A stretch of 64,000 nt of DNA, from IMG/VR virus record IMGVR_UViG_3300035517_000267, positions 67,521 to 131,520 of that record, one strand, 5' to 3'. The position numbers and the translations under genes were made by a program. Shown piece after piece: positions 290 through 56,215 of this stretch. The notes beneath the pieces are model-generated. The model saw only the letters and a program-made list of their open reading frames with translations, was not told the origin of the DNA and made no database searches. Position 1 is the first letter of the stretch. The number at the start of each line of letters is the position of its first letter. The DNA is from a virus (Duplodnaviria; Heunggongvirae; Uroviricota; Caudoviricetes).

Positions 290-577
290 TTATTCCTCCT
301 CCGTGAAAGCCCAGGTTTCTCCATAATCTGAGAAACGATAAATGTTAATATCTGGACCAGGAGATCCCCAAACGAAGAAAAAACAATTTTCATTTGCGCC
401 TAATTTAAGTTTTTCTTTGCTAATTTCGACTACTTTATCGAGCTTTTTAACTCCATTACCATAGTTGAGGTATCTTTGACCAAACATAAAGCCAAAGATA
501 GACCTCGTTGCATTAGAGTAATATTTCTCAAGTATTTGTTGTTTAGTCATCTTCACTTTCTCCTTTTGCCCTTTCAC
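290..577 (-). CDS. hypothetical protein
   Basis: ORF of 95 aa; its stop overlaps the start of the downstream kinase gene. Confidence 0.4.
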   Translation of the reverse strand: MKGQKEKVKMTKQQILEKYYSNATRSIFGFMFGQRYLNYGNGVKKLDKVVEISKEKLKLGANENCFFFVWGSPGPDINIYRFSDYGETWAFTEEE

Positions 578-2543: not shown

Positions 2544-3840
2544 CGTGTTATCCTATGTTTCCATAGGTACTGACTATCTCTTACTCCGTGAGAAAAGAAT
2601 TTTATATCCTTTCTCACGGAGAATACCATTTCGGTTTTCAGATGCTTCGTTTCCTAAAACATCGCTGCGTACTAATAGCAGCCCTACTCCCAGTCTCACC
2701 CGGGATAGTCGATACGCACAAAAGTTAAAGTGTTACATTCTTCCATGTTTTATAGTTAATTATATCTCTAATCGTGGTAGTAGACACGGAGGGGTATAGA
2801 GTATATAATTCTTTATTTGTCATTCCTTGTTCATGTTTTTTCCGAATATATCTTACATCATCTTCTGTAAGTTTAGCTTTAGGATTTCTAGAACCAGAAG
2901 CCTTTAAAGAGCTATGCTTCTTTTTGTTTTCTTCTGTAAAGACTTCTGGCATTACAAGCTTATAACTACGACCATTATATACATTCCAAAAACTCATTTC
3001 ATTGGTATATCTATTCTTATAGTCCTTATAGACATCTTTCCAATATTCTCCATTGGCGTAGCGCTTCCTTAAATCTATAACCTCTTCATATGTTAATACA
3101 TTACCTTTATTACAAAACTGATTAGAAAATTCAGTATTATAAGGATAACATTCTACCGAGGGAGTTAGATTTGTATAAGTTTGATGGTTGTAGCACTTCC
3201 TAAAAGCTTCATAACTTATCTTATCGCTAAATTCTTCATATAAAAGATAAATTGGAATGTTTCTATGGTCTTTAATATATTGCGCTTCTTCTTGCGTCAA
3301 ACAAGCATTTGCATTATCACTTCCATATTTAGCTTTATCACCCATAGTATACATCCCACCCTTAGCTACATTATAGCCATTAGGGACTAAACTATTTTTT
3401 TCTTGAATTAACTTTATTTCCAGCTCAGAAGCTTCTTCAACGCTAATTCCTTCATAAAGAACTTCAAAGGTAAAATTCTCTTTACCATACTTTTGAATTG
3501 CGTTCGTAATAGCTTGACGTCTCTTTGGATCTCCTATTTTAGAACACTCATTCTGCCAACGCCTCTTGTAATTGTTGGTTATTCCAATATAAATTTTCCC
3601 ATTTATATTATTGGTTATTTGATATACATACATACTTCATTACTCCTTTACAGTTCATATTAGATGTACCCCTACATTAAATATGAAAGTCGGAATAAAC
3701 ACTTTAAACTTTTTTGGTCCGGGATTACCATGAGATAAAAATCTTTTAGGCTTCCCCGGTGCTATATAGGTATTATTTACTTACGAGTTGCCTCAGCCTA
3801 TATAACATTGCTAGTAAGCAATTAGGTATTTAGTAGCCTG
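2544..3840 (-). mobile_element. group I intron interrupting dnaE, carrying a GIY-YIG homing endonuclease gene
   Basis: The DnaE reading frame is broken: exon 1 ends ...DCSQQLV and exon 2 resumes ...IKIDLLSV, aligning to DnaE LLKFDFLGL. The intervening about 1.3 kb holds a free-standing GIY-YIG ORF, and the 3' intron segment (2548-2730) contains GACUA-type core sequence shared with the dnaB intron. Confidence 0.7.
2725..3633 (-). CDS. GIY-YIG homing endonuclease (I-TevI-like, with a C-terminal NUMOD/IENR-type DNA-binding region)
   Basis: MYVYQITNNINGKIYIGITNNYKRRWQNE and NGYNVAKGG form the GIY-YIG motifs. The C-terminal region is related to the second intron endonuclease (MPEVFTE... KTWK). 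Confidence 0.85.
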   Translation of the reverse strand: MYVYQITNNINGKIYIGITNNYKRRWQNECSKIGDPKRRQAITNAIQKYGKENFTFEVLYEGISVEEASELEIKLIQEKNSLVPNGYNVAKGGMYTMGDKAKYGSDNANACLTQEEAQYIKDHRNIPIYLLYEEFSDKISYEAFRKCYNHQTYTNLTPSVECYPYNTEFSNQFCNKGNVLTYEEVIDLRKRYANGEYWKDVYKDYKNRYTNEMSFWNVYNGRSYKLVMPEVFTEENKKKHSSLKASGSRNPKAKLTEDDVRYIRKKHEQGMTNKELYTLYPSVSTTTIRDIINYKTWKNVTL

Positions 3841-5675
3841 ACTAATTGTTGACTACAATCTTCGCTATCATGCAGATCAAACTGTGTTACAATGTCTCCA
3901 TTAGGCACTTTCATTAAGGCGGTTGATTTTGTAAAAGGTTCATCTACAAAAATAACTCCACCAGCGTGCTCTCCGACGCGACATACCAAGCCTTCTATCT
4001 TCTGTGCGACTTCCCAAACTTCAGGATAGTCATTAGTCATGGCATTAACAAAAGTGGGAATTGGTTTAAATCCTTTTTCTTCGTCTCCATAGAAACATTC
4101 TTTAAGTGTGCGGGTTTGCCCTCTATCAGCAGGAATAAGAGACGCAAGATAAAGACCTACATCACTATCTATGCCAAGTCCTCTCGCAGCCGTTTGGATT
4201 GCTGACTTACTTTTTTCAGTTCCAAAAGTAACTACATTAGCCACTCTATCTTGTCCATAAAAATCACGAAGATGTTGGAGCACTTGAGCACGCCTTCCTC
4301 CCTCTATATCGCTATCTATGTCGAGCACAGAAACACGCTCGGGATTCAAAAATCTCCATGAATAGCATTTTGTCTCTTCCCATAATGGATTTATCTGAAT
4401 AATATCGAGCACATATAGCAAGGCAAACCCAACTCCTGAACCACGACCAGGTCCAACTAGAGTTCCTGCATTCCAGCATTCTTCAATCGTCTTTTGAAGA
4501 TTTAAAAAATAAGCACTCCAATGTGTTTTATTTACTTCTGAACTTTTCCAAGTAATTTCAAGATTGCTATTAAGTTCGTCATAAGTTTCTTGATTTTGCA
4601 GTCGAGAGTCTTTCTTTAATTTATCTACAACTGCCCTTGCGAGAATACTATCTCCATCAAAGCTCGATTGAGCGAACGTCCGCAAATAAGGAATTTTTTC
4701 ATACCATTCTTCTTCAATTGTTTTTGTCTCAGGAATTTTCCAGATAAGAGAAGGAATTTTTAGAGGCTTCAAAAGGCTATAATCTTCGCAAGCATCTTTA
4801 ATTTTTCTTATATTCTCATAAGCTGTATTTAGCTGTATCTCTGTAAAATAATCAAAATAAAGCTCTATTTCAGTTGTATCCATTATATAAGTTGTAGCAT
4901 AAAAAGAATCAACTTCTCTTTCACCATCCTGAGAATTAAGAAAAGCTTTGTGAATCGGAGCATCTTCTCTTCGTGTATAGTGAGTATCTGTAGTTATGAT
5001 ATAAGGAATGTTGAGCGTAGAAGAAAGATTAAGAAGGAACTTATTAACTTCTATTTGTTCATCATTTCTGGAAGGCTGCATTTCAAAATAGAAATTACCT
5101 TCTCCAAACAAATGTACCATACTAGTACACCAGTTAATAATTTGTTCATAAACTGTTTCATCATCTGTTATAAGATATTCCAAGATATGTTGCGGAAGCC
5201 AGCCTCCTAGACACGCACTACTTCCTATTACGTTTCCTCTATCTTGTCCTATAATCTCTATAAGATCTTGGTAATAAGTGGGAACCCTCGTCATTCCTCT
5301 TGAAGAATAACTGCGTTCCCATGCTCTTGTTGAAAGTTCTCTTATCTGCTCATGTCCTCTAGCATTTTTTGCTAAAAGAATAAAGTGCCAATACTTATCT
5401 TGTCCAGCAATATAAGTTTCAGGAGATAACCCATCTCGGCAAAGATAAATTTCATTGCCTCTAATAACCTTAAAGTCTGGATGATCTTTCTTTACTTTGC
5501 TATAATACTTTTCAATTTTGACGGCATTACTTATAGTTTCATGCTCGGTAAACGCAATAACTTCATGCCCAAGCTCAATAGCTCGATCTATAGAAGATTC
5601 TATGGTTGAAATGGCGTCGCGTAAGCGCAAATTACTATAATCCGTGTGCCCATGCAATGAACCGGGATAACCCAA
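3822..5675 (-). CDS. dnaE: DNA polymerase III alpha (DnaE-type), 5' exon (PHP domain and N-terminal palm)
   Basis: LHGHTDYS... FTEHE is the PHP domain; NFYFEMQ and GFALLYVLDIIQINPL are DnaE-like. The frame closes at 3822 inside the intron. Confidence 0.8.
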   Translation of the reverse strand: MGYPGSLHGHTDYSNLRLRDAISTIESSIDRAIELGHEVIAFTEHETISNAVKIEKYYSKVKKDHPDFKVIRGNEIYLCRDGLSPETYIAGQDKYWHFILLAKNARGHEQIRELSTRAWERSYSSRGMTRVPTYYQDLIEIIGQDRGNVIGSSACLGGWLPQHILEYLITDDETVYEQIINWCTSMVHLFGEGNFYFEMQPSRNDEQIEVNKFLLNLSSTLNIPYIITTDTHYTRREDAPIHKAFLNSQDGEREVDSFYATTYIMDTTEIELYFDYFTEIQLNTAYENIRKIKDACEDYSLLKPLKIPSLIWKIPETKTIEEEWYEKIPYLRTFAQSSFDGDSILARAVVDKLKKDSRLQNQETYDELNSNLEITWKSSEVNKTHWSAYFLNLQKTIEECWNAGTLVGPGRGSGVGFALLYVLDIIQINPLWEETKCYSWRFLNPERVSVLDIDSDIEGGRRAQVLQHLRDFYGQDRVANVVTFGTEKSKSAIQTAARGLGIDSDVGLYLASLIPADRGQTRTLKECFYGDEEKGFKPIPTFVNAMTNDYPEVWEVAQKIEGLVCRVGEHAGGVIFVDEPFTKSTALMKVPNGDIVTQFDLHDSEDCSQQLVRLLNT

Positions 5676-10918: not shown

Positions 10919-12031
10919 TCATTCCTTTGGTACAATCCTTTCTTTTAATAACTTTTCAAATATTTGCGGACCTGCGTCTATAGGGCTTGCTTTATGAGGG
11001 AGAATCATCTCCTTATCAAATATTGCAGATATTTTAATACTTTGACCATATTTATCATTAATGTGAATAAGTTTACTTTTTAGTCTCTGAAACTCTTTGT
11101 CTCCTATGCACTCAAAATCACGGTCAAATGCAACCACAACTTCTTGTACTCCAATAGATTTTAATAGTTCTATATGATAAGTTGAAATACTACTACCGCA
11201 ACAAGCTACTGAAATATCGTTATCTTGTCCATAATAACTAATATACTGCAAGCACGCTTTTTCTGATTCAAAAATAATTGCCACTCCCGCACGCCTAATA
11301 TTTTCTTTACTATTATTCAAATTATATAAATTAAGACTTAAAGGATGATTATACATTTGTCCTTCTACTATTAAAGGGCGATATTTTCCAAATTTATCTG
11401 CTTCTTCTTGTGCTAAAGTTCTTCCTCTTATTCCAATAAGATTACCTTCCATATCAAAATGAGGAATAGTTATTTGCTCTTTGCCTGGGTAATAACCGAT
11501 TAGATTCTTCTTAATTACCTCATTTGATATACCTTCATCTTCCCAATTAAGTATCCTTGGATAAAGAAATCTAGTAAGAATAACCGGGTCATAACTAGGC
11601 AATTTAGCAAATGAAAAAGAATCTTTGGACTTTTTCTTATATCTACTAAATATTTCCCAACCTATTAAATGCTCTTCTTCTTTTACTTGCTCAACGCCTT
11701 CAAATCCAAAGTATTGTGCAATAAAATTCATGGCGTCATAAAGTTGCCATTCCATATTTTTTTGATTATGTACTACTTTAATACATAATTCAAATATATC
11801 AAATGAAGGTGAACTTGTACATCCAGTAAAACAATAAAAGAGTTGTGAGCCTTCATAATAATAAAGTTTGCGGGAGCCAACCCCTGGAAGATTATGACAT
11901 ATTGTCTGGGAGATTATACCTTGTGAAAAGTATTCAGGCTCCCCGCCCCACATTTCTAATAGGTCGTATATGTTTTCTATTGATAGTTGAGCTTTTAGTT
12001 CATCTTTATTATAAAATTTATTCAATCCCAA
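10919..12031 (-). CDS. dnaG: DNA primase, DnaG-like (zinc finger plus TOPRIM)
   Basis: CHN...CFTGC zinc-binding region and a TOPRIM motif AIIFESEKA...VVVAFDRD. Confidence 0.75.
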   Translation of the reverse strand: MGLNKFYNKDELKAQLSIENIYDLLEMWGGEPEYFSQGIISQTICHNLPGVGSRKLYYYEGSQLFYCFTGCTSSPSFDIFELCIKVVHNQKNMEWQLYDAMNFIAQYFGFEGVEQVKEEEHLIGWEIFSRYKKKSKDSFSFAKLPSYDPVILTRFLYPRILNWEDEGISNEVIKKNLIGYYPGKEQITIPHFDMEGNLIGIRGRTLAQEEADKFGKYRPLIVEGQMYNHPLSLNLYNLNNSKENIRRAGVAIIFESEKACLQYISYYGQDNDISVACCGSSISTYHIELLKSIGVQEVVVAFDRDFECIGDKEFQRLKSKLIHINDKYGQSIKISAIFDKEMILPHKASPIDAGPQIFEKLLKERIVPKE

Positions 12032-12720
12032 GGAGCATCACCATCATCTACAATTACGCGTGTATCCTCTATAGGTACCATTTCTAGTCGCCAGTTAGTA
12101 CAAAATTGCGGTTCTATTCTACAAGTTCCCAAATTTGCGGAACAAAAAAGATAAACTCCCTTATATGCCCCACGACGATTCTTATATATAGATAGTTTGA
12201 TTTTAGGCACTTTAAGATTGGGATTTGCGGCAAGAATTGGAGCGAGTTTTTCAAGGTCTTGAGGAGTAACTTCCAAGAGTATCATCCCCGTGTCAACTCT
12301 GTCTGCGATGCTTTTCGCTCCTCTCAAGAGATTTTGGTCTGGAGTTTCGCTATCTTTATAGTCGGTATTAAGCTGTGTACCCGTCAAAATAAAAACTCCA
12401 TATTGATTAGCTATATCTTTTAACCTAGCAGACAACATAAAAAGTATATTATCTTCTCGAAGCTTGACTCCGCCAGAACGCTTGGATATTTCTTCGAGTA
12501 TCTTGAGTGATGTGTGTATATAATCGAACATATTCCTCCTATGTTTCCATAGGTACTGACTATCTCTTACTTGACAAAATGCCAAGGATACCTTTTCGAG
12601 CCACGTACCAATAGTAGCCCTACTCCGCCGATCCGCGGATAGTCGATACAGGTTAAATTTGGACTTGTTTCCAAGTTTTTCCTCGACAAATATCTCCAAT
12701 TGTAGATTTGCAAATACCAT
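12022..12720 (-). CDS. dnaB: replicative DNA helicase DnaB-like, 3' exon
   Basis: MFDYIHTSLKILEEISKRSGG... ILTGTQLN matches the DnaB IDYLQL...ALSQLNR region. The true exon begins near 12530; the upstream in-frame part of the ORF is intron sequence. Confidence 0.7.
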   Translation of the reverse strand: MVFANLQLEIFVEEKLGNKSKFNLYRLSADRRSRATIGTWLEKVSLAFCQVRDSQYLWKHRRNMFDYIHTSLKILEEISKRSGGVKLREDNILFMLSARLKDIANQYGVFILTGTQLNTDYKDSETPDQNLLRGAKSIADRVDTGMILLEVTPQDLEKLAPILAANPNLKVPKIKLSIYKNRRGAYKGVYLFCSANLGTCRIEPQFCTNWRLEMVPIEDTRVIVDDGDAPWD

Positions 12721-13526
12721 ATTTGTCGATTAATTGTTGGTATGTGAATCCATTTTTTCTATCTATTTTAATTGCACGAACAATTTCTTCATTTAATTTG
12801 GTATGTCTATTTTTCTCAGTAAATACTTCTGGCATAATTGTTTTATATCTAGAGCCAGTCCAAATATTTAGAAAAGAATTATAGTGCATTTTTCCTTCAT
12901 ATAATTCTTTGTAAATCTTACTTGGACTTTCATGCCTAGCATAAGCTTTTCTAAGAAAAATAACCTCATCTTCCGATAATGAAGCGTGAGCTTTCATAAG
13001 CTTTTCTTTTTGTTCCTCTTTCATTGGTTTAGAAGCATTTAATCCACCAGACTCAATATTATATCCATTTGGAATCTAAGTTTTTAAATTAGCAATATAA
13101 TATATTTCTAGTCCATTTAATTCTTCTATTGTTTCGGCTTCTGCTAAAATTTCATATTTAAAATTTTCATAGCCATATTTTCGGAAAGCTCTATGAAGCG
13201 GAGAATTATACTCAGGGTCTTTTTCATTAAAAGCCGTACTTTTATGAGCATTATATCTTTGTCTTGGGTTAATTGTTTGACCCACATATTTTTTCCCATT
13301 AATTAAATTAGTATAACAATAAATGATTCCCATAAAGTAATCATCCTTTCTTTAAAATTATTTCCATTAATATATGAAAATAATCAAAGGTGTTTTGATT
13401 ACTTTTGTCCAAAATTTTTTCCCACGGGATTACCATGCCATTTGGTTTAGGTTTCCCCGTTAGCTAGAATCAAAACTATTCTAACCCCAGTGGTAACTGG
13501 AAAGGTATTACACAGCCCTCGGTTTT
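12541..13526 (-). mobile_element. group I intron in dnaB, carrying a GIY-YIG homing endonuclease
   Basis: DnaB N-terminal and C-terminal halves are separated by about 1 kb. The 3' intron segment at 12538-12660 shares near-identical core blocks with the dnaE intron: cctatgtttccataggtactgactatctcttact, agccctactcc and ggatagtcgatac. Confidence 0.7.
12653..13333 (-). CDS. GIY-YIG homing endonuclease, intron-encoded, with one in-frame TAG
   Basis: The 13076-13333 ORF (GIIYCYTNLINGKKYVGQT) and the 12653-13024 ORF (IPNGYNIESGG... KTWKQV) are in one frame joined by a TAG at 13076-13078. Together they give the complete GIY-YIG plus NUMOD-like architecture seen in the first endonuclease. Confidence 0.65.
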
Positions 13527-14567
13527 TCACTGAGCAATGTAGCGAACATCATGCTCTCTGATGTTCTTCTTTATAATATTTTCTACGTCTTGGAGAGAAA
13601 AGTCGGGCAACGTCTCAACCCAAAGGGGGCTACGAGACAAGATTTCCGCAGCTTTTTTAATTCTTTCTTCTTCTCCTTCAAGATATTGACCATTTAAGAT
13701 ATGTTCTTCATTTACATTTGATAAAAATGCAAGCATCATTGTTTGAATCTCAGTTAAATCTTGTTCAACAGCAATAAAAAGAGTAGGCTGTGCGCTTCCA
13801 TTTCTTATCCAACCAAACTGGTCATGATAAATCTCATTACACGCAAAATTGCAAGCATCGGCAATCATTGAACGTGTTTTGCCAACTCCAGTTGCCGCTG
13901 ACCTAAGATACATTTTGCCAAGTCTTGCTCCGCGAGTTACTGTGTTAATGAGGGGTCCATACATCGGAATACCAATCTCAGGATTCTTCTTTAAATCTTC
14001 AATAAGTCCCAAAATACCATCTCCCGCCTGGTAGCCATCACCTAAGTCATCATTAACATATTTTGTTTTTATTTCATCTATTCTATTATCAATATCTTGG
14101 GCAATAGATGTAATAGAAGTTTTATCAAGCCAATCTTCTTGCTCTTGTTTTTTGTTTGTATTGATAATATTTTCTGGGTCATAAAGATAACTTACATCAA
14201 GCCCATAGTTTGCATAAGCTCTTAGCAAGCTAAATTTTTTCATGCGCATATAATAATAATTAAAGGTTTCTTTCTTAGAAACTTGAGAAGCTTCTGCAAG
14301 ATATTCAACGCCTTTATTCTTATTAAAAATCGCTTCATATTTAGGTCTATTGGCGAGATAATCTATAATAGACTCTATGTTTACCTTACTCCCAGTAAGA
14401 TGTATATTGTAAATTGCTCCAAAAGTTATTTTATGAAAATTTTCAGTAAAATCATCTTCATGTATAACATATTTATCTGTATCATCAAGTATAGAAGAAT
14501 CGTTAAAAACACATCCAATAACCTGCGTTATGGCGGCAAGGTCTATATAACTATTAGGATTAACCAC
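13527..14567 (-). CDS. dnaB: replicative DNA helicase DnaB-like, 5' exon
   Basis: DnaB N-terminal domain followed by Walker A GVGKT. Confidence 0.7.
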   Translation of the reverse strand: MVNPNSYIDLAAITQVIGCVFNDSSILDDTDKYVIHEDDFTENFHKITFGAIYNIHLTGSKVNIESIIDYLANRPKYEAIFNKNKGVEYLAEASQVSKKETFNYYYMRMKKFSLLRAYANYGLDVSYLYDPENIINTNKKQEQEDWLDKTSITSIAQDIDNRIDEIKTKYVNDDLGDGYQAGDGILGLIEDLKKNPEIGIPMYGPLINTVTRGARLGKMYLRSAATGVGKTRSMIADACNFACNEIYHDQFGWIRNGSAQPTLFIAVEQDLTEIQTMMLAFLSNVNEEHILNGQYLEGEEERIKKAAEILSRSPLWVETLPDFSLQDVENIIKKNIREHDVRYIAQ

Positions 14568-15178: not shown

Positions 15179-15736
15179 TTAACCCTTTATAAGTTCTTCC
15201 AAGTCTGTAGCAATCAAGTCCATAAGCTCAGCTTGCTCGGGGGTACAATCGCTAACTTTTCGCCCCTTACCAAGATAACGCTCAATAATTGAGGTAATCT
15301 TAGCTGCGTTAGACTGATTTGCACTCATAAGATCTCCAATAAGATTCTGAATCTTTTCAGCAAGAGCCTGATAATCATATTCTTTTGGAGCTGCAAACTC
15401 AGCTCTTTCTGTAGTAATATACTTTCCATTTGTTGCTTTTGCTTCTGCATCAATTGCGGCATTAAGAGCATTAACAAGTGCATTATAAGAAAAATCTATT
15501 TCAGGAGCGATATATTTAAATCTACAGCCACAACGAACACTATTATCCTCAGACCTAAGTGTAAGAACAGGCTTATAGGTTCCATCAGGCATAGCTTTTG
15601 GATGAGCATAGGCTATTATATCACTCATATTTTCTATTATCGAAAGCGCAGAACTCTGCATAGAAGAACCAATCTGTTGATATTCAGTGCCATTCTGAGG
15701 TTTAATTGTTTTTTCTTTATCGTGACTTATAAACAC
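15179..15736 (-). CDS. probable 3' exon of an AAA_24/Sak4-like recombination ATPase
   Basis: RecA-fold continuation (DIIAYAHPK...) downstream of the P-loop ORF at 16927-17292, separated by a LAGLIDADG-containing insert. Confidence 0.4.
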   Translation of the reverse strand: MFISHDKEKTIKPQNGTEYQQIGSSMQSSALSIIENMSDIIAYAHPKAMPDGTYKPVLTLRSEDNSVRCGCRFKYIAPEIDFSYNALVNALNAAIDAEAKATNGKYITTERAEFAAPKEYDYQALAEKIQNLIGDLMSANQSNAAKITSIIERYLGKGRKVSDCTPEQAELMDLIATDLEELIKG

Positions 15737-16926
15737 AACAGCATATCCCAGCTGAGTTAAAGTCCTAAAAGTTTCCTCGAATTCCTTTTTATATTTTGCC
15801 CCAATAATGTTATCCTAAAGGCTTTTTATCCTCTAGTTCTTACGCTTACTTATTCGCGTAAGTTCAGCATAGCTTTTATCCCCAACACTTGGGGATTGTA
15901 GTCTCGTGGAGAACTATATCAATTAAAGTTTTTTATATCTATAATCTTTTGATATTTTTCTTTCTTTCTTGCCAGGAATAAAGAGTTATCGGTATATAAA
16001 TGCTTAAAGATTTCTTTAGAAGCATTTGTCGAATATTGTAAGATATATAATGTAGAAGTATTACGTTGAAAAGAGTGAACATTTACTTTTGGAATATCAT
16101 ATTCCTCATAAAAAAAGTCTACAATCCATTCAAGAATTTCTTTAGTTGCAGATGTAATCTGCCAACTCAAAGTATTATAATTATTAGAAAGAAGAGTTAT
16201 ACTCCCATCGCCATCAAAAAAACCTCTAATATAATCAATCCAATATTTTCTATCTAAGCTTAATGGTGGCTTTAGCTTAAAGGTTTTTTGTGGAATCACG
16301 CCATACTTGGCTAAATCTTTTTTATGTTGTTCGCTTGACCATTGAATTTTGCTAACTTGATAACCAGCTTGAGTAATATAATCTTTAACTTCGGACTTCA
16401 AACCAATTTCTTGACGAATCTTTTCAAGAATCTCTCTATCTACTGTACTCAAACTAAGTTTAACTACATTCCTATCTTTCTCAATGCTACCATCGGCAGC
16501 CAAAAAACCAACAAGCCAAGCCATATTATGATTTTCTTCGCTAAAATAATTCTGCTTTTCTAGCAGATTTCTGCCTTTATTCGCAGCTACAATAGCTTCA
16601 TGTCGATTTCTTAATTTATAACCATTCTTTTCTAAGACTTCTTTGAGTTGAGGCAAAGTTATTTTTGCAGCAGCCATTACTGCCGCTTGCCCTCTCCCAT
16701 TTTCAATATACTCCTTTAGAACAATTTTCTCTTGCTCTTCCGTAAATGAGTTTTTTGTATTCACACTGAACACACTCCTTAAAACTAAAACTTTAATTGT
16801 TTAATTTCTCTATGCGTTGCGCGTGTTAAAGCTTTTAGACTTTAACTTCCGCTCTGGTTAGCATTTCAGCTTTCCAGGTTTTTACTACAATTTTGATATG
16901 AATTACTTCATAAAAGACCAAGCATT
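15737..16926 (-). mobile_element. putative group I intron with a LAGLIDADG homing endonuclease inside the Sak4-like ATPase gene
   Basis: A Walker A/B N-terminal half and a C-terminal half are separated by 1.2 kb holding a double-motif LAGLIDADG ORF. The flanks contain GC-rich hairpins and an AGACUA element. Confidence 0.45.
15919..16773 (-). CDS. LAGLIDADG homing endonuclease (double-motif)
   Basis: LVGFLAADGS and IRGFFDGDGS motifs. Confidence 0.8.
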   Translation of the reverse strand: MFSVNTKNSFTEEQEKIVLKEYIENGRGQAAVMAAAKITLPQLKEVLEKNGYKLRNRHEAIVAANKGRNLLEKQNYFSEENHNMAWLVGFLAADGSIEKDRNVVKLSLSTVDREILEKIRQEIGLKSEVKDYITQAGYQVSKIQWSSEQHKKDLAKYGVIPQKTFKLKPPLSLDRKYWIDYIRGFFDGDGSITLLSNNYNTLSWQITSATKEILEWIVDFFYEEYDIPKVNVHSFQRNTSTLYILQYSTNASKEIFKHLYTDNSLFLARKKEKYQKIIDIKNFN

Positions 16927-17292
16927 TTAGCCATTATTCGACCATCCGCCGTCTCCAATGTTTTCTATCCCCAGCTGATTACAAACATATTTCTGACACA
17001 TATCAGCGGCTAGGTCTGCGGTATCAATTATAATGCTTTTATAAACTTCCTTAACCTCAGATTTCTTAAGCTCTCTAAGAACTTGCTTCATATCTCCCCA
17101 AGATGTGATATCTTGTACCATGACCCCAGGTAGTGCGTTGTAACCACGCTCGAATGCTAGTATCAAATGACCAGGCATCTGAGAACCAAAAGTCGTCTTA
17201 CCAATCTTTGCAGGTCCAAATAAAAAAGTAATATAGCCAGATAGATCGCGACTTACACTATGAGGCTGAATATTTAAAAGGTTGATAGCCAT
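16927..17292 (-). CDS. AAA_24/Sak4-like ATPase, 5' exon (Walker A and Walker B)
   Basis: GPAKIGKTT and SIIIDTAD motifs; the 121-aa ORF stops right after Walker B, which reads as truncated. Confidence 0.5.
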   Translation of the reverse strand: MAINLLNIQPHSVSRDLSGYITFLFGPAKIGKTTFGSQMPGHLILAFERGYNALPGVMVQDITSWGDMKQVLRELKKSEVKEVYKSIIIDTADLAADMCQKYVCNQLGIENIGDGGWSNNG

Positions 17293-19754: not shown

Positions 19755-20681
19755 TCACGCGCCTCCCGATGTTTTATTCATACCGCTTTGTTTTGTATCA
19801 TACAAATCTATATAATAAATTTCACGCTCATTAAGTTTATCTCTGGAAATTTCTTCCAAAACCTCAAAAGTAAAATTATTTAATCCATCTTTTTTCATAG
19901 CTTGGTAAAGTTTATTCGTAGCAGGAGCAGAAGATAAACCAGCCTTGATGTGTTGCCTAAACCTCTCTCGTATATCGACCGACTGACCAATATAAGATTG
20001 TCCACTAATTAAATCTGTTATTTTATATATACCAATTATCTTTCCACTTGTTTTAAACAAATGAGACATTAAGGTATCATAAGCAGTTTTATAATATACA
20101 TCCCAAATTAGTTTATCTATAGCTTCTTTATGGCATAGTCTTTTTTGCAAATCTCTTAATAAAGTTATATCATTAATATCTTCATCGCATATAGGCAATT
20201 TATAATAACTTTCATTAGCTTTTATTTCTTCTTCTCTTTTCTTTGCCTGAATATAAGCCAATTGCTTAGCTTTTAAATCTTCAACTTTTGCTTCTTCTTC
20301 TACAACTTTATTAAGACAATCTTGCAATCTTTCTTTATATTTTTTATTAAGTGACTGATATTCTTCATCAAGCGCGGCGACCGACGCCTCATAGGCTTCT
20401 TGAGCTTGCTTTATAGCGCCCTCCCGCATATCTTCTGCGGCTTTAGATAAAGAATTTAATATATTAGCTTGTGCCTCTACAGAATCTTTTACTTCATCAA
20501 GCTTTTGTTTGTCCTAATCTATTTCGGTTAAGAGCTGACTATGTTGTTGCTCTAAAAAATCATTTTCTTCTGCTATCTCTACATTAACTTTAATTATTTC
20601 TTGCTTAGTTTGTCTAAGCTTAATTACATAATATAAGAGAAAAACACTAATAAAAATTAAAAAAATAGTTACAAATATCAT
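19755..20681 (-). CDS. membrane-anchored coiled-coil protein with a C-terminal GIY-YIG nuclease domain; one in-frame TAG at about 20514
   Basis: C-terminal IIGIYKITDLISGQSYIGQS... GGA is a GIY-YIG domain. An upstream ATG at about 20681 opens a transmembrane helix in the same frame, interrupted only by the TAG. Confidence 0.45.
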
Positions 20682-29539: not shown

Positions 29540-30799
29540 TCACCCTCTCATTAGTTCGGCACGCTCGGCAATCCTAGATCTATGACATTGCTTAAGCGTT
29601 ACTTCACCATAATAGCTTTGACCTCTAAATACTTTAGAAGCCTTAATTAATCCATTATTATTGTTTTTATAAACATCTAGATCAACTTGAGTGCGGTCAT
29701 CGCCTTCTATGATACAAATACAATTCTCTCCAATTCGTTGAAGAATAAGTTGCATTGTATCAATTGTAGTATTCTGAGCTTCCGTTACATAAACGCCAGC
29801 TCTAACATTTATATCCATTCCTCTACAATCAGAGACGGGAATCAGTTCAATTTTTCCTTCGTTAATTAATCTTTCAATAGCTTCAATTCCACCAAACTTT
29901 CCTACGAGGAAATTGCCAATTTGTGAATCAAGCAGTTTCGTATTTTTATCACCCGGATAAAATCCGAGCTTAACTGAGTCTCTAGTTGCTACAGGGTTGC
30001 AAAAAATTATAATTTTATCAATACGATTTTTCTCAAGTTGTTGAACGAGATAAGCCATGGCTATATATGACTTTCCACTTCCAGCTTTTCCACGAATAAT
30101 TGTGAATTGGTTATTAGATAAGCTATCAAACAAAAGCTTCTGATAAGGGTCATTCTTATAAGGCTTAACCTTCCCAAACCAGTTTGAATTAAAGTCCTCA
30201 TAATCAAGGTAATCATGACTACTACCTGACCATTTCCGCAAATCCAATATTTCACCATCAATACTTCGCAATATTAAATACTCACCTATCAAGAGGTTAA
30301 AGTGATTATAATTTATATCTTGGTAAAATTTGGTAAGAACCTCATCATTTGCATATATCTCTTTATAACCTGTATATTCATCATTATTTTGTGCGGCTTC
30401 TTCTATCATCCCATCTCCGAAAAACAGCTATGCAATATTCGCTAAAGAAAAATCATTAGTAACAAATATTACTTTATCAGGATGAATAAAATTATTCGCA
30501 TAAATGGCATCGCTTAATATCCTTGTATCATCTGTTATCGTGAGAAACTTTTCTCGAATGGTATTTTCCATATTTTCAGTATGAATTATTAAATCATACA
30601 ATTCTATATTTTCTCTAAGCCATTTAAGAATTTGTCTGGCTAAATATTTAGTATCAGAATCTTTTGTAGAAGAAACCTTTATTCTTTCCAATTCATTAAG
30701 CGTAATAGAAGAAATCATTATTTTTTCTTCTGGCATTTGTTCTCCCAAGGCTAAAAGAGCACTTGTGTCATAGAAACGAATGTCATGTTCCATAGTCAT
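29540..30799 (-). CDS. phoH: PIN-PhoH fusion ATPase (YlaK-like) with an in-frame TAG at the domain junction
   Basis: The PIN ORF (30428-30799) ends at TAG 30428-30430 and the PhoH ORF (GKAGSGKS) follows in the same frame six codons later. PIN-PhoH is a known single-polypeptide architecture. Confidence 0.7.
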
Positions 30800-39258: not shown

Positions 39259-39417
39259 ATCTTACCTCCTAGGGTATGGCGGCGGGGGACGGTACTGACC
39301 CGTCTTCCAAGCTTTTAGAGAGCCTTGCATTACCTTTATGCTACCCCGCATTTTCTAATTCTATTATACAGGAAAAATTTCATAAAGTCAAAAAAAAGAG
39401 AGGGTTTATTCCCTCTC

Positions 39418-39858
39418 TTAGAAAATAGCTTCTTCAAAGCCGTCTCGTTCAGTTCTATAAGGCTTGATGGTATTACAAAGTATATTCAAACAAATTTGCA
39501 TCAATACTTTAATTTTTTGTGAAGTTTCATCTATTGCCAAAGCTTCTAAAAGAGTATCACAAACGCTACAACTTCCATAACTAATCCACGTCATAAGATA
39601 ATCTTCGTGCGTAGGCTGGTAAGTCTCAAAAGGAAGAAGATAAAGCAACGTACCTTGATAATCTCCATTATCTATCTCAGTAATTCCGTCTATATAGATA
39701 TTATAAGCTTCCCAGCTTTCATCATTATAAACTCGTTCAAAAGCAATTTCAACTAGATCTTTGTAAGTTATATAGTCATTCTCCAACAAATGTTGAGACA
39801 AGGCATATTCCAATTTATCTTTGTTCCTGTCCCATTTCTCCTTGATAATATTTAGCAT
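39418..39858 (-). CDS. hypothetical protein
   Basis: 146-aa ORF, no recognisable motif. Confidence 0.4.
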   Translation of the reverse strand: MLNIIKEKWDRNKDKLEYALSQHLLENDYITYKDLVEIAFERVYNDESWEAYNIYIDGITEIDNGDYQGTLLYLLPFETYQPTHEDYLMTWISYGSCSVCDTLLEALAIDETSQKIKVLMQICLNILCNTIKPYRTERDGFEEAIF

Positions 39859-45946: not shown

Positions 45947-45979
45947 TTACTCCTTTTATATAAGAATTGAATTAACTTC

Positions 45980-48917: not shown

Positions 48918-51053
48918 TCATTCAAAATCTTCTCCTTCCAATTCTTCAATTCCACCTTCTTCTTCCATAGATTCTTTATCAGTTATATATATCATAATAG
49001 GTTCATCTATGTCATAGAAAGTTAATGTATCATTTTCATAATCTATAGAATAATGTTCCTCTGAAAGTTGCTCCTTAAGAGGTAAGCCTATCTCATACCA
49101 TATATAAGGTAACTTTCCAATTAAAGGACTAGCTTTTAAGAACTCAAAATCACATTCACTTAACTTATTTCCTTGATAAATAAAAGAATTATTTTCCATT
49201 TTTTGGATACCAGTGTCTCCATTTTCATCTAAGAAATATTTTCCATCATCAAGCTCAAATATTACGCCTAATATTCCACCAACCATTTTATCAAGTGTAT
49301 AATAAACAGGAATAAGTTTAAGATTAACTGAATTGCTCATTTCACTTAAGCGATAAATAGAATCATCATATTCTTTTCTAGCAAATGACGTTGTAGTTAA
49401 TGCTCCAAAAATTTCAACAAGCTAAACCACAATATTAAAACGAGATTCTCCATTTATGGTTGTATACATTACATAATTACCATCGCCAATATTAGAATTA
49501 AACTCAATCTCATTTGTTTCTTCATTTTGAGTCATGTTTATATAGATTTCTTGGACTTCTGGTCTTGGACACTCCTAATAAGTAGCTATATACATACCAT
49601 TTTTTCTAGTAGAAAGTTTACAATATCCTTTATAAATATTCCATTCTGCGTGGACTTCATCATCTAAAAGCCAAGGTGCTACCCATATAGTATTACCTCT
49701 ATAAACATTACTAGGACACGTTGTAATAGAATTTTCTTCTTCGCCTTCTATTATTGAACCTTCTTCGCCAAAATCAAAAACTAATCCATTTTGACAGCCA
49801 TATCTGCCAGAAACACACAAAAATTCATTTTCATATTCAAATATTTTTGCTTTTGCTTCATTGTCATATTCATCTTCATTTTCTTCGTTTCTAATAGTTA
49901 ATGCAGCATTGTAAATCTTTAAGGGTCTACTCTGAGTAGCTTTTTCATTATCAGTAACTGCATATACTTCAAAATAAGCGCCTTCTGTATACAAAGCTGC
50001 TAAAACATACAAAAGAATAATTCCAATAGTAGAATTATCAGAATCTTTATAATCAAAAAGTTTGTCTATAGACTCAACTAATGAAACTTCTCCCATAACA
50101 AATGAAGTCAGTTGGTTAGGTTCATAAGTACCATTTAATCCACCAAAAATAGCATAAATGGCTTGATAAACTGTATTAACAATAAAATTTATTAAACCTT
50201 CATTTCCATTGTTAAGGTCATTAAAATCTAAACTATTAACGACAGTAACTACAGTATTAATAATACCATTCCAAGTGGTATTGCAAATAGGAAATAATTG
50301 GTTAATGAATTCCGCAAGAGAAGGAACATCTTTCAATTGTTTAATAGCAGCAATAAGATTATCAATCAGTTCTAATCCATCTTTTACTAAAGGAGCATAC
50401 CAAACTTCATCTGGGTCTTGTTCCGCAAGTTCTTCTAATATGTCCTTAACGGCATTACTTTCCCAAGCTTCTTCAATATCATCTATTAAAGTAACGATTT
50501 GAGAAACGTCAATTTCTGGAAAATATCTTAAACAAATGTCTGATATAACATCTGCGGGAACCCTGATATGTAGAGTATACTTAGGATACCTAATCTTAGC
50601 CTTAGCTCCTGCTATTATCATCTAGTTGAAGTAAGTAAAGAAGTCAGGGGAAAATACATCTTTCACCTAACTAACGAAACTGACTATTTCCTTATAAAGA
50701 TAAGAGTACGCTAAATCATCTATATCAGTATCACTTGCATCTTCTCCAGCTTCTTCTTCTACCTTCTTTTCAATATCGTTAATCATTTGCTTGTAATTAG
50801 CTATAGTTTTTAATACATCCTAAAATTTAATATTATTATCAAAATAACTATGATTTTCAATAGTAATACTAGGATTTGTTCCAACTCCAAGATCGTCAAC
50901 ATCATCCATTACAAACTTAAAGGTAGGCGTAGGATTAACATCATGCAAACTAAAAACAGCATCTTCTCCCGTATCAGTGGGTAGTTTAACCGAATCTATT
51001 TCATTATAAGTAATAGTGTTACCCAATGAGTTTTTTAAACTAATATTAACCAT
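48918..51053 (-). CDS. late structural protein of about 711 codons read through five in-frame TAG codons; function unknown
   Basis: ORFs 50820-51053, 49575-50621 and 48918-49340 share one frame and are separated only by TAG codons, near 50820, 50667, 50622, 49575 and 49422. There is one start with AAAGGAG 9 nt upstream of the ATG at 51053, and one terminal TGA at 48918. Confidence 0.65.
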
Positions 51054-51055
51054 TA

Positions 51056-52093
51056 TTATTCATCTCCTTTAAGTGTAATCGTAGAATCTTCTTGCTCAAG
51101 ATTGTCGGCAGAAGAAATGTTATAAGTAGTTCCATCAACATTTACATTTGATATATTGTATTCAAACTCACATACTATTTCACCATTTTCAAGAGTAAAA
51201 GGAAATCTACATCTAAAATAGGAAATATCCTGTAAAGTATTTGCAGTAGAATCGCTAAATCTAGTAAAATAATTGCTTTTATCTATATCACTTAATACTA
51301 CTGCGTTTTGTAAAGTGTCAATAACTTGCTTCCAAGCAGTTTCTTCGTCTTGGAGAGCAGAAAACTAAACGTCTTGTGGAACTTTAACTCCACAAAAATA
51401 AACACCATAATTTATAATTATATTATTTAAAAAATCTTTTTCTGCCAAAATTAGTTTTCCTAAATTGTTTAATAAATCTGGGATGACAGAATTTTCAGCC
51501 CTTGCCAATATTCCTAAATATTCGTTATAGGAAATATTGTCAGTTTGGTTAGCCATAACAGTTTCGTTATAACTGTCTATATTTAGCCTTGTATAAATGG
51601 TTATTTTATCATAACTAGGGGAAATAAAGGCGGCTCCCGCACGTCCCCAAGTATTAAACTATGAAGTACGAGAAACATAATCATCAGGAATTGGTGCTAC
51701 TACTATATCTCCTGTTGCATAAGTACCTTGTTTTATTGCTATTTGAGAAGAGAGAGAGGGAGTTATTATCTCTCCCTCTTCTACCACAAGCTACCTTTTT
51801 GATTCTTGTTTGCCCGAAGTCGCGGTAATTAAACCAGTATCACTAACTGTAATAACAGGTTCAGGGCAAAGAACATTAACAGTAGCTTGTTTAAAACCAA
51901 CTAAACCTTCGCTAGGAGTTAAAGTATAAGTGCCATTATCCGTATATGTTTCTTTTACAGAATCATTTAATAATTCTTCTGAATAATAAGGAGCGAAGGT
52001 TTGCTGAGAGCTATCGGTTGGGACTAAAACTTCTTTGATTCCCTCGAAAGAAACACCTTCACCCGATTTATTTAATAAATATACTTGTGGCAT
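51056..52093 (-). CDS. late protein(s) with three in-frame TAG codons and an apparent +1 frame change near 51720
   Basis: MPQVYLL... ends at a TAG (51791) and stays open for 35 codons. An overlapping +1 frame (…YATGDIVVAPIPDDYVSRTS[TAG]FNTWGRAG...) runs into MANQTDN... (51556), crosses another TAG at 51365, and ends at the TAA at about 51056. A frameshift, a sequencing indel, or two overlapping genes are all possible. Confidence 0.35.
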
Positions 52094-52165
52094 TTTAACC
52101 CAGCCTTTCAGGATTTAGTTTCTGTTTGCACCTTTATTTCATCTTCAAAGGAAATATCAACTATT

Positions 52166-52759
52166 TTAGTCATCAGTAAAATCTCCTTCTATATCTTCTT
52201 CAAAATTAATAGTAAAACTTAAATCATTAGCGGGAAATCTTAATTGCATAGCATGAGCCGTTGTAATAGAATTGGCAAGCTAGTTAGCATATATTAAAGT
52301 AGTTCCTTGATATAAAGCTATAGCATCTATAACGCCCCAGCCACCTTGATCCACAACGTCGTCTGTAGAATTATTTATATTGTCAGCAGAACCATCATCA
52401 ATCTCAGGGAAAAGAAGGTCATAGGCATTTATAACGGTTGCCTCTGAACCAGTATGTTTTAAAACTAAATAATTTCCAGATTCATAACTTGATTTAAGGT
52501 TCTTAGCTGTGGTTCCAGTGCCTTCAACGTCATCACTGTAAACTAAAATTTGTCTTTTTACATATTGTCTTGTATCAGAGACTTTATCTATCTTGTCTTG
52601 ATGTTCTTCGGGAAGGTGACTCTTGATAGAATCAACGCTTATTTTTATAAATTTATTTTCATCTTCGGCATCTTCATCCCAGTAACCTAATTCAATATAA
52701 AAAGTTCCGTTACTAAAAATTTTATCCCAAAGCGTCTCTTTACCTTTGGTAGTTATCAT
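52166..52759 (-). CDS. late protein with one in-frame TAG
   Basis: Strong ribosome-binding site AAGGAGGAAGAATAATTATG; TAG at 52280-52282; the frame continues for 37 codons to a TAA. Confidence 0.55.
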
Positions 52760-52761
52760 AA

Positions 52762-53208
52762 TTATTCTTCCTCCTTAGTTACTTCTTGCAATTTAATTTT
52801 AATGCCTTTTTTAGGAGAGCTAGAATAAGCATTTAGTTTTATTAAATGATTTTGTCCTAAAGAAACAGGGCTATTAAATTTAATAGCATACATTGCAACT
52901 CCATCTGCTTTATTAGTAGAATTTTCTCCATTTTCTAAGATATATCTACCATCATAAAACATTAAACCATCTACTGCTACATTCCCGGAACTTTTATTTT
53001 CGTTAAATAAAACCGAGCCAGTAGTTTTCCATTCAAGGTTAGATGTATCAAGTGAGCAAGATATTGACTTATTTCTCGTTGTTCCATTATCATCCAGGCT
53101 GGTAATTCTGTTCATACCGCTTTCTTCACCCTAGCCAAGAGCAATATACTAAGTACCATTGGAAAATAAAGAACTCATAATTAAGCCTAAAAAGGTTTTT
53201 GTGACCAT
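52762..53208 (-). CDS. late protein with two in-frame TAG codons near the N-terminus
   Basis: AAGGAGGA ribosome-binding site 7 nt upstream of the ATG at 53206-53208. Sequence MVTKTFLGLIMSSLFSNGT[TAG]YIALG[TAG]GEESGMNRITS...; terminal TAA. Confidence 0.55.
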
Positions 53209-53226
53209 GTTTAAATCCTCCTTGGA

Positions 53227-55480
53227 TTATCTTATTGCTGTAGCGCTTTCAGTAGCGCTATAATCATATATTTGTTTTATTTTTAAAGCATAGTCAGACT
53301 ATACCGGATCTATCCAATCAATGTCTAGCTTTAAAACTCCATCATTCGCATCATAGGAATATACTTGATAGATTTTTAAAGTATCATCTATTTGTACTGG
53401 ATCGATCCAATCAGACGGCTCAGTCTACTCTACTTCTACTTCAATATCATTAACAAATGTTAAAGAATTTTGGACATTTACTATGCTAGTTTGCGGATAT
53501 ATGCACACACAATTTGCATCATTAATAAAATTTATAGAAGAGCTTAAAGCCTCACTATAATCTTTTTGCTCTGCAATATATAAAAGACAATTATTTGAAA
53601 AGTTTAAAACTAAAGATGAATCCTATTTATAATCTTGTTGACTTACTGTATGTAACCTACAATTATTTATAAATTGTGTTTTTGAATCTAAGATTGAACT
53701 ACAATCTTTCCAACTAGCTATATATAAATTATAATTATTTAAGAAGTTTAAGTCTGATTTGAGATTTTCTTTTTGTTCTTGATTACTTATAAGCTATAAT
53801 CTGCGGACGCCGGTAGTATGTAGCGACATATCTTGTTTTGAAGATTGTTCATTCTCGTATATTAGCTTCGCCTAAGCGTTTGCCGCAAACTCCAAGCTAC
53901 TTTCTCCATTATATGTACAATCTACTGTTACAATAGAAAAATCTAAAATAGTAAGAAAATAAGAGTTCAAGAATTGTGTACAAGCTTTACTAGCCAAGTC
54001 CGCACAATTATCAGAAACCAAAGTAGCTCCCAATGAAAGAGTTGAATTTATCGAATTTATTAAATTATTCTAATTATCACTCTTATATACATCTGCTATT
54101 CTATAATTTTTTTGAACTTGAACATTATTTTCAAAACTATCTTTTAAATCTTCTTCTGCTATTAATTGCGCATTAGCTTTTTTAACAATCTAAGCTGTAT
54201 TTTGCAAACTTGCTTCATTTGTTTTAGGAGAAACTAATGCCAATCTTAATCCTAAACTGGTAAAACCTAAAGATTCTTTAAGGTTCGTTGTAGAGATCTC
54301 TCCTGGCATAACAAGAGTTGCATCAAAGTCTTTTTGAACCTTTAACTTTGGAGATTCCAAATTAGCATCAAGGTACCTAGGCTCTATATTAGTGCCACTA
54401 TAATCTTTTTTAATCTAAAAATTTGAGGTTGTATCAAAAAATTTTAAAAAGTCAACTTGACGTATGTCAAGTAGTTTCGCAGACCTTCGTGTATAGAAAT
54501 TATAGGTATCTTTAATGCTCGAAGGAAACGAATGTCTAGTACAATTTAAGGCAAGACTTTTTCTTTTTATTTTAAAAGTATAAGTGTCATTTGATTCTGG
54601 GACAAGGTTTTCTCTGTCTACATTAACCGCAAAATTTTTCCGATGTAATTTATAAGTGTAAGAGTCATTTGATTTTGGAACAAGATTTTCTCTAGATAAA
54701 TCAATAGCTTTATCAAATCTTTTCAAATAATAGGCATAACTATCTGTAAGAGAAAGACCTTTTCTAGTAATATCTTGTGCCCTTGTGCGCCTTCGACCTA
54801 GCAGCGTCCGCACATTTTTATCCTTTAGAAAAAGTCCTTTTCTTTCCAAATTTTTAGCTTTAGTTTTTCGTAAAATCTTAAAACTATCTTTAGTTTTAGA
54901 ATTACTGTTAAATAATTCCAAATTACTTGCATTGCCATCGCGTTTTATAACAAAAGAAAATTTAGCTTTATTTGAGCCTTCTTGATTAGCAAGATTTATT
55001 GCAGTAAAACTTCTTTTAAACTAAAAATTGTCTTGTATATCAGCATTAATATCTCCATCTATACAAACGGTTGCATTTAAGCTATAGATAGGAATAACCG
55101 TATTAGATGTATTAATACTGTTATTATATATTAATAAATCTTCTGCGCGAGTTGAATTCTAAGTCTAAGCAAATGAAAAAAACTCTTCATCGAATGTTTT
55201 TCCTGGGATAATATGAACTATATTATAAGTATTTTGCGGACGCACGCTTACTGATTGTGACACATCTTGGTCTATAGAGCATTTCGCCATACTCTATAGC
55301 CTTATGTCATTAATAGAAATAATATTAGTTTTTTCATCTGCTTTTGTCGGCAGCTAAGTTGTACAATGTAATCGTACATTCATACTAGCCGCAACTGAAT
55401 TATCTCCTATTAATTCTGGCTATTCGTTCTAGATAGTTACGAATGTAAGTCCAGCCGCATTATCAAACTAGGTTGTAGCT
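53227..55480 (-). CDS. large TAG-rich late protein (tail-fibre or tail-like, with DWIDPV and ENLVPxSNDxYTxK repeats); start not resolved
   Basis: ORF 54415-54921 ends in TAG and shares a frame with the TAA at 53227. The 1.3 kb between has no ORF of 60 codons or more in any frame under the standard code, and in-frame TAGs were confirmed at 53299 and 53425. Confidence 0.45.
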
Positions 55481-55558
55481 TTATAGTTTCCTTTTAATAC
55501 AATTGATTTTTCGTTTAGAGGAAGTAATTGATAATATAATAATAAATATTTTTGTTTA

Positions 55559-56215
55559 TTATCCATTTGAGACATCCCTACTTACGCAAGACCATTTGCC
55601 TTCTCCCAACGCTATTCCAACTATTTCATGAAAAGCATTTTGCGTAGTAGCGGCTAGATGACCCACTAGTCCAATTGTATTTTCTTCTAATCCTCCTATA
55701 GCAATAGTAATATAGCTAGATTGAGGTATTGTATAAGATATATAAAACATATCCCCCAGCGTTTTCGCAGGAGGAATTGTAAAGGCAGTTATATCAGTTA
55801 AAGTGCCTAATATATATACATTATTTGCTTTAATAATTCCATCAGATGGCAATGAAGTGTTTACAGTCATGCCAGGCGGAATTGTAGTGTCAGTATATTC
55901 TTTCGCTTGTTTTAAAACATTATTGATTGAGCCTTCTGTATCCTCAGAACCATTTAAAGTATTAATATTCTAAATTATATCTGCGGCGACCTCGGTATGT
56001 GAATCGATCCAGCTTGATACTTCTTTCAATGTATCAAGCGTTTCGGGCGCACCATCAACCACCGCCGCAATTTTTTCATTTACTAATGCTTCTATATCAT
56101 CTGTTGATATATGCTCGGATACAATTTCTTTTATTTGTTCAACAGCTTCTTCTCTTGGTAGGAAATCTTTCGCATCAATGTATTTTTTAGCAAGAGTATA
56201 AGTTGTAAAATCCAT
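55559..56215 (-). CDS. late protein read through one TAG (ORFs 55970-56215 and 55559-55870 fused)
   Basis: TAG at 55970-55972; 33 in-frame codons link to the MTVNTS... ORF; terminal TAA. Confidence 0.55.

Follow-up and report, generated by a model that had tools for sequence, protein, structure and literature searches.

The 64,000-nt stretch of DNA analysed here (positions 67,521 to 131,520 of the IMG/VR virus record IMGVR_UViG_3300035517_000267, Caudoviricetes; hereafter the window) contains a predicted group I intron that interrupts the gene of a DnaB-like replicative helicase and carries an open reading frame (ORF) for a putative GIY-YIG homing endonuclease with one in-frame TAG. It is very probable that this phage has reassigned TAG from stop to glutamine (Gln; genetic code 15), that it encodes its own suppressor tRNA with the anticodon CUA, and that codon 86 of the endonuclease gene is therefore read as sense. 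Since TAG appears to be read as Gln in this phage, which on its gene content is of a Bacillota-type lineage, the endonuclease gene is predicted to be intact and its product full length. The interpretation offered in the preliminary description of this DNA is supported in substance; what that description missed is that the decoding of TAG is a property of the whole genome and is not peculiar to the endonuclease gene. The frame in question is defined by two features:

12653..13333, minus strand: GIY-YIG (I-TevI-type) homing endonuclease ORF, 226 sense codons including one TAG; stop codon TAA at 12655..12653
13076..13078, minus strand: TAG in frame at endonuclease codon 86, predicted to be read as Gln; falls within the GIY-YIG domain, three codons ahead of the Asn of NGYN

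Translation of the minus strand from 13333 to 12653 yields one 227-codon frame with exactly one internal stop codon, which bears out the earlier statement that the listed ORFs 13076-13333 and 12653-13024 share a frame and are joined by the TAG. A run of 226 codons free of TAA and TGA has a probability of ~1e-8 in off-frame-like sequence of this genome. The residues directly after the TAG are IPNGYNIESGG (...TQIPNGYNIESGGLNASKPMK across codon 86). They turned out to be the conserved GIY-YIG motif, as had been proposed, and their counterpart in the paralogous GIY-YIG ORF 2725-3633 (minus strand) is LVPNGYNVAKGG.

The Pfam model PF01541 (GIY-YIG) matches residues 1-92, across the TAG, with 34.4 bits (cut-off 22.6), and the NCBIfam model TIGR01453 ('group I intron endonuclease') covers residues 1-223 as a single stretch with 73.7 bits (cut-off 56.05). 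When the protein is aligned to the I-TevI family, as the preliminary description had suggested, residues 4-94 pair with the I-TevI catalytic-domain structures 1mk0 and 1ln0, and the TAG falls at a residue preceding NGYN. Because the Pfam, TIGR01453, and I-TevI alignments all span the TAG, the two ORF halves form one protein, and the view that the enzyme is complete only if the TAG is translated stands. The description of an intron-encoded GIY-YIG enzyme holds as well; the TAG, however, does not join the catalytic and DNA-binding domains, as had been thought, but lies 6 residues before the end of the catalytic domain. The catalytic residues of I-TevI are Tyr6, Tyr17, Arg27, Glu75, and Asn90. 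In the alignment to 1mk0 and 1ln0, Y5, Y16, R26, H30, E76, and N89 of the window endonuclease pair with the I-TevI catalytic positions, and the catalytic Asn (N89) is encoded downstream of the TAG. The first five of these residues, together with G90-Y91-N92, are invariant in an alignment of 43 sequences. At least 120 full-length homologues of 224-267 aa exist. A Pfam helix-turn-helix (HTH) domain was not detected in the C-terminal part of the endonuclease at E < 0.01; its homologues carry precomputed HTH_3, HTH_38, or HTH_7 matches, and TIGR01453 also covers the C-terminus. Judged by these matches, the gene product belongs to the I-TevI type of GIY-YIG homing endonucleases, and it would be expected to cleave DNA and promote homing. 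It shares with the I-TevI/I-BmoI family (TIGR01453) the N-terminal GIY-YIG domain with aligned Tyr, Tyr, Arg, His, Glu, and Asn. It differs from I-TevI in that the identity is low (E = 0.018, catalytic domain only) and no zinc-finger linker is evident.

The sense reading of TAG draws on three features located elsewhere in the window:

39277..39350, minus strand: amber-suppressor tRNA, anticodon CUA, called by ARAGORN; U1.C72 mismatch, G73 discriminator, encoded CCA
39363..39419, minus strand: terminator hairpin, then a promoter-like TTGACT-17-TATAAT site, lying directly upstream of the suppressor tRNA; consensus match only
48918..56215, minus strand: six tail-fibre-associated (late) ORFs, open only with TAG as sense; 28 in-frame TAGs

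The TAG-dependent ORFs of the 48918-56215 block comprise one of 782 codons with 16 TAGs (53227-55575), one of 711 codons with 5, one of 345 codons with 3, and three smaller ones. A run of 782 codons without TAA or TGA would occur by chance in a non-coding frame with P ~3e-28. The Gln-type codons CAA/CAG/TAG number 66/3/28 in this block and 308/100/6 in the remaining reliable genes (odds ratio 28, p = 1e-16). A search of PHROGs assigned no function to the five most TAG-rich ORFs themselves, only their neighbours matching tail-fibre PHROGs. In this AT-rich genome, the codes could not be told apart by stop-to-stop ORF totals calculated under each alternative. Two further genes contain an internal TAG. 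A PIN-PhoH2-like gene at 29540-30799 (minus strand) has it at codon 124, where it is spanned by the PhoH2 model match (residues 80-412). A third GIY-YIG protein of the window, a membrane/coiled-coil type at 19755-20681 (minus strand), has an N-terminal hydrophobic helix and a long coiled coil, with one in-frame TAG (codon 56) within the latter. This protein and the intron endonuclease hold 2 of the 3 TAGs in the ~37-kb replication region.

Gln is the best-supported candidate for the amino acid that TAG would specify. The helicase genes of related viral contigs were translated directly from DNA and compared at the columns where TAG occurs. The sense partners of TAG in the seven such columns are Gln in 93 of 134 cases (69%) against a Gln background of 3.7%, and five of the seven columns have 70-100% Gln. 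In the endonuclease family, two relatives (L057/L058) have TAG for the invariant Gln19 (GQT motif), and Gln25 and Gln200 of the window endonuclease are TAG in closer relatives. An internal repeat of the 782-codon ORF has DWIDPVQ in its one copy where the second has DWIDPV[TAG]. The suppressor tRNA itself has U1 opposite C72 and G73, which we take to be features of bacterial tRNA-Gln and supE-type suppressors. The likeness to E. coli supE-type suppressors presumably lies in an anticodon that differs from the Gln anticodon CUG at position 36 only, in the weak or absent 1-72 pair, and in G73. In contrast to E. coli supE, the suppressor is phage-encoded and unrelated in sequence to the phage's own tRNA-Gln(UUG); it is putatively charged with Gln.

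Several observations weigh against the assignment of TAG to Gln. Database homologues show Q 65 times and K 40 times at the codon-86 column (120 homologues). The database proteins (P0003, P0013, and others) had already been translated with TAG as Gln, their DNA carrying TAG, so the Q count at TAG columns is circular and was discarded as independent evidence. The sense codon that relatives have in place of TAG at position 86 is one for Lys and not for Gln; the residue inserted there is therefore predicted from the genome-wide pattern. In addition, ORFs 33885-34214, 45956-46309, and 47345-47563 (minus strand) have a TAG in their last 3-7 codons with a TAA shortly after, and these TAGs near the 3' ends of a few genes may reflect either occasional use as a stop or C-terminal Gln codons. 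The status of Lys as the commonest sense alternative at codon 86, together with the ARAGORN label 'Pyl' for the CUA tRNA, could be read as a sign that TAG encodes pyrrolysine or another non-Gln residue. We regard this as highly improbable. The label stems from the anticodon alone, the tRNA is an ordinary cloverleaf that fits the general Rfam tRNA model (41.4 bits), and the ORFs examined include no pyl genes, although no dedicated pyl search was made. Pyrrolysine decoding was rejected on account of the Gln-rich TAG columns of the helicase and the fit of the tRNA to an ordinary model.

The TAG could also be a genuine stop, and two versions of this idea were considered. According to one, it is a nonsense mutation in a decaying pseudogene, and the intron persists only because it is still spliced. 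Phage group I introns often contain degenerate endonuclease ORFs, a CAG-to-TAG change needs a single transition, and ORF-less copies of the same intron occur at the same helicase site (L062, L069). The preliminary description had likewise held that a stop conserved at this position in close relatives would imply a degenerate enzyme. The codon-86 TAG is indeed common to the window, L002 (a 98.7% identical strain), L018, L021, and L006/L007, yet the implication is not valid. In related contigs, 25 distinct endonuclease copies were found (53-79% identical), which together have 45 TAGs in frame and lack internal TAA and TGA; one TAA/TGA was counted, in L004, at the extreme end of the range extracted, and it is apparently the terminal stop. 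The 141 codons downstream of the TAG in the window copy have no frameshift, TAA, or TGA, and retain all 21 family-invariant residues of this part. The ratio of nonsynonymous to synonymous substitution rates (dN/dS) for codons 87-226 is 0.13 vs. L018 and 0.18 vs. L021, which share the TAG. Since TAG-bearing copies have more TAGs elsewhere, lack TAA and TGA, and are under purifying selection, the conserved TAG is a sense codon and not a mark of decay. Comparison of the window with L002 (IMGVR_UViG_3300035502_000509) also speaks against decay. The two differ at 58 of 4489 nt, the 5' and 3' exons having 4.6% and 2.6% mismatches, respectively, but there are none in 13574..12515, i.e., the intron with 42 and 14 nt of exon (P = 1.6e-7), and the mismatch density drops again further from the intron. 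An identical intron between diverged exons is the pattern expected of recent homing with co-conversion and is a hint that the element may be active. Given that the genome decodes TAG, that selection is purifying, and that 45 TAGs stand against no other stops, the pseudogene was rejected and has only a very slight chance of being right.

According to the other version, translation ends at the TAG to give an 85-residue N-terminal fragment, and a 123-residue DNA-binding protein, e.g., a repressor, is restarted at the ATG at 13024. This ATG lies 17 codons past the TAG and begins the listed ORF 12653-13024, and the DNA-binding domain of I-TevI is known to act as an autorepressor (cited in PMC3073962). 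Against this, the restart Met is not conserved, most relatives having Lys there, and no ribosome-binding site is evident at a proper spacing from the ATG. The invariant NGYN...GG segment between the TAG and the ATG would stay untranslated, and TIGR01453 gives one match on both sides of the TAG. For these reasons, the split protein was rejected too; we find it scarcely credible.

The reading of TAG as Gln thus restores a single endonuclease, and the ORF encoding it is looped out between the core elements Q (P4') and R (P7) of the predicted intron. The intron and its host gene are made up as follows:

12529..13532, minus strand: group I intron, 1004 nt; junction set by intron-less relatives, with covariation, U.G pair, and terminal G
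13450..13464, minus strand: core element P, GCTAACGGGGAAACC; pairs with Q to form P4
13421..13431, minus strand: core element Q, AATCCCGTGGG; pairs with P to form P4
12637..12649, minus strand: core element R, GTATCGACTATCC; 5' strand of P7, begins 4 nt past the endonuclease stop codon
12556..12568, minus strand: core element S, AAGAGATAGTCAG; 3' strand of P7
13533..14567, minus strand: 5' exon of the DnaB-like replicative helicase; Pfam DnaB and DnaB_C (profile positions 9-133); ends ...VRYIA, last base T
12022..12528, minus strand: 3' exon of the DnaB-like helicase; Pfam DnaB_C positions 154-246; starts FDYIHTSLKILEE..., stop TGA

About 30 related viral contigs have the helicase gene without interruption. 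One of them, L023 (77% identity), reads ...VKYVLFDYLQTSLKILEE... where the window has ...VRYIA | FDYIHTSLKILEE..., and its sequence around ...AAATATGTGCTTTTCGATTAT... represents an intron-less target. Because the helicase is contiguous in intron-less relatives, the intron ends are fixed at 13532..12529. The spliced helicase protein aligns in one piece to the replicative helicases of 137 deposited Bacillota phage records. Covariation was examined with RNAalifold on eight intron copies from which the ORF had been deleted (alignment A2). The resulting structure has 67 pairs. Compensatory changes are seen in 29 of these, in P1, P2, P5, P8, and P9-type hairpins. The P1 U.G pair at the last exon base, which marks the 5' splice site, is invariant in 8 of 8 copies while its neighbours covary (columns 13-16/39-42), and the terminal G of the intron (column 402) is invariant. 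P4 (P/Q) and P7 (R/S) were predicted and are invariant; P3 was not convincingly recovered in this eight-copy analysis. The elements P, Q, R, and S occur in the classical order and resemble the RF00028 consensus. At the Rfam gathering score, no Intron_gpI match was obtained in the window or in 13 ORF-bearing relatives, and a permissive Rfam scan of 12400-13650 gave chance matches only (snR85, speF). In L069, where this helicase site holds a homologue of the intron without an ORF, there is a match to RF00028 over the full model, but its 25.4 bits (E = 1.9e-4) fall short of the gathering score of 50. The intron call therefore relies on the junction, covariation, the core elements, and the sub-threshold L069 match. 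The identification of 12529..13532 as a group I intron is well supported by this evidence, though short of the RF00028 gathering score, and the intron is predicted to be spliced. The position of the ORF, looped out of a peripheral helix between P6 and P7 of a phage group I intron in a DNA-metabolism gene, is shared with the I-TevI/I-BmoI family. In contrast to that family, the host gene is a DnaB-like helicase instead of td or thyA, and a reassigned stop codon lies within the ORF.

In relatives, the helicase gene turned out to be a hot spot for introns, with insertions near residues 230-260, 344, and 420-434 (L039, L056, L057-L060); L059 has three at once. In L069 (~4520-4560, minus strand), two TAGs are found in the last eight codons of the helicase 5' exon before the intron (GAACAT TAG ATT TAG TAT GTC TTC). 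ORF-less copies of the intron family were also found in other genes (L064/L065, L066, L067, L068). Two of these introns interrupt a Toprim-type ...DRDPDG/...DADVDG motif, the host looking like a gyrase B/topoisomerase gene.

The window itself contains other insertions of this kind. The paralogous GIY-YIG ORF 2725-3633 (minus strand), which has no TAG, splits a gene for a DnaE-like DNA polymerase III alpha subunit (PolIII-alpha; 546-5675, minus strand) into a part with the PHP and NTPase domains (3825-5675) and a part with the finger and HHH domains (546-2540). An exact copy of the R element, GTATCGACTATCC, at 2703-2715 follows the stop codon of this ORF, which marks the insertion as a second intron of the same family. 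A LAGLIDADG endonuclease ORF at 15919-16773 (minus strand), also without TAG, lies between the halves of an AAA_24 (Sak4-type) ATPase gene (15182-17292), which match profile positions 4-103 (16930-17292) and 126-186 (15182-15736). This insertion is probably a third intron.

The mechanism that we infer for the helicase intron involves Gln charging of the suppressor tRNA, endonuclease activity, and possibly a regulatory role of the TAG. The phage tRNA(CUA) would be charged with Gln by host enzymes and would compete with release factor 1 (RF1). If the charged suppressor is present, Gln would be inserted at codon 86 to give the full 226-residue enzyme with its catalytic domain and C-terminal DNA-binding part. 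If it acts like I-TevI, helicase alleles of co-infecting relatives that lack the intron would be its targets, and their cleavage would drive homing of the 1004-nt intron. If the tRNA is absent or RF1 wins, translation would stop after 85 residues, leaving a fragment that lacks the conserved Asn and the entire DNA-binding part.

A possible extension, which adds to the reading of TAG as Gln and does not replace it, is that the codon has been kept as a translational throttle or timer that ties endonuclease synthesis to the level of suppressor tRNA. We consider its chances to be clearly less than even. Most ribosomes would then stop at codon 86, ~420 nt short of the 3' catalytic core of the intron, and the pre-mRNA would fold and splice first. 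In the case of I-TevI, splicing is impaired when ribosomes enter the intron core, and translation is held back by a hairpin that covers the ribosome-binding site. Borges et al. (bioRxiv 10.1101/2021.08.26.457843; Nat Microbiol 2022) described a TGA-rich group I intron endonuclease in Agate phages and proposed, by the same logic, that the in-frame stops withhold the endonuclease until late infection (bioRxiv 10.1101/2021.08.26.457843). The codon usage of the endonuclease family is in line with such a role. Its 25 copies spell 45 of 204 Gln-type codons as TAG and only 10 as CAG, whereas the helicase exons at the same loci have TAG 16, CAG 103, and CAA 285 times. The enrichment of TAG is ~7-fold (odds ratio 6.9, Fisher p = 1.6e-11), and TAG makes up 82% of the xAG Gln codons in the endonuclease family vs. 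13% in the helicase exons. TAG use is higher in the endonuclease at 14 loci and lower at 3 (paired Wilcoxon p = 0.0012). The TAG/CAG ratio of the endonuclease resembles that of the late tail-fibre block of the window, despite the location in a replication gene. Furthermore, the R element begins 4 nt past the endonuclease stop, so a ribosome terminating there would cover this P7 strand.

Other data tell against a throttle. The compared copies share ancestry, so these statistics overstate their independence. The window copy has only one TAG among its 8 Gln-type codons, and TAG is absent from both other intron endonucleases in the window (2725-3633 and 15919-16773). The helicase of the relatives, an early-type gene, itself contains 1-6 in-frame TAGs, and the near-consensus sigma-70-type promoter-like site before the suppressor tRNA suggests that the tRNA may be available early; both weaken a simple 'late-only' gating model. 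We therefore only tentatively suggest, in the knowledge that this is rather doubtful, that the endonuclease family has been selected for TAG over CAG as its Gln codon, so that synthesis is gated by the suppressor and ribosomes are kept off the P7 core. The same tentative suggestion includes the notion that TAG gating is a convergent, code-based substitute for the I-TevI hairpin and independent of the TGA case in Agate phages. The Agate element resembles the family studied here in that it is an intron endonuclease, its host gene is an early one, the gut phage uses an alternative code, and a reassigned stop is preferred. It differs in the codon, which is TGA (Trp) there and TAG (Gln) here, with a single TAG in the window copy. 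The lineage is also different, the helicase of the window phage being similar to those of SPbeta-like and Enterococcus 130-140 kb phages. The idea of an intron endonuclease written with a reassigned stop has thus already been published for TGA; what is added here is another codon in a different, uncultured lineage. If correct, the throttle predicts an effect on splicing or homing when one TAG in a self-splicing intron is changed to CAA. The family represents a second independent example of an early-gene intron homing endonuclease preferentially written with a reassigned stop, TAG and not TGA, and strengthens the idea that a code change controls the timing or amount of selfish or dangerous proteins.

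Hairpins upstream of the endonuclease start were also seen in this family. In the more distant copies, such as L003 (~2960-3000) and L005 (~2965-3000), a hairpin has the endonuclease's Shine-Dalgarno sequence as its 3' arm, e.g., CTCCTTTCATA-ttaat-TATGAAAGGAG. This arrangement upstream of the ATG recalls the hairpin that masks I-TevI's ribosome-binding site. The hairpin is present in the window copy of the intron, with AAAGGA left uncovered.

Recoding of TAG to Gln with phage suppressor tRNAs is established for crAss-like, Lak, Garnet/Topaz, and Phassvirus phages (PMC9523058, PMC10607447, Borges et al.), Gln at TAG positions in the proteome having been demonstrated for crAss-like phages only (PMC9523058). 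The window phage shares with code 15 phages the encoded tRNA(CUA), the alignment of TAG with Gln, and the concentration of TAG in structural or late genes with scarcity in replication genes. It differs from them in gene content, which is of the Bacillota-phage type (PolIII alpha, gyrase A/B, NAD ligase, YorH, ROOL RNA). A nucleotide search of deposited phages revealed no close genome, only short intron-core matches in Enterococcus phages; the helicase is ~38-40% identical to those of SPbeta-like, Enterococcus, and Geobacillus phages. Since table 11 breaks up the whole tail-fibre block as well as the endonuclease and PhoH2-like genes, translation table 15 is needed to annotate the window and its relatives.

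Structured RNAs were found next to the TAG-rich genes. A full-length ROOL RNA (322 bits; 47772-48349, minus strand) lies just downstream of the TAG-rich tail-fibre block, between tRNA-Gln(UUG) at 48387-48461 and tRNA-Leu(UAA) at 47688-47774. A very AT-rich tRNA-like sequence at 47131-47233 (minus strand) fits the Rfam tRNA model with 40.5 bits, has a 36-nt insertion in the anticodon loop, and was not called by ARAGORN; it may be an intron-containing or a degenerate tRNA.

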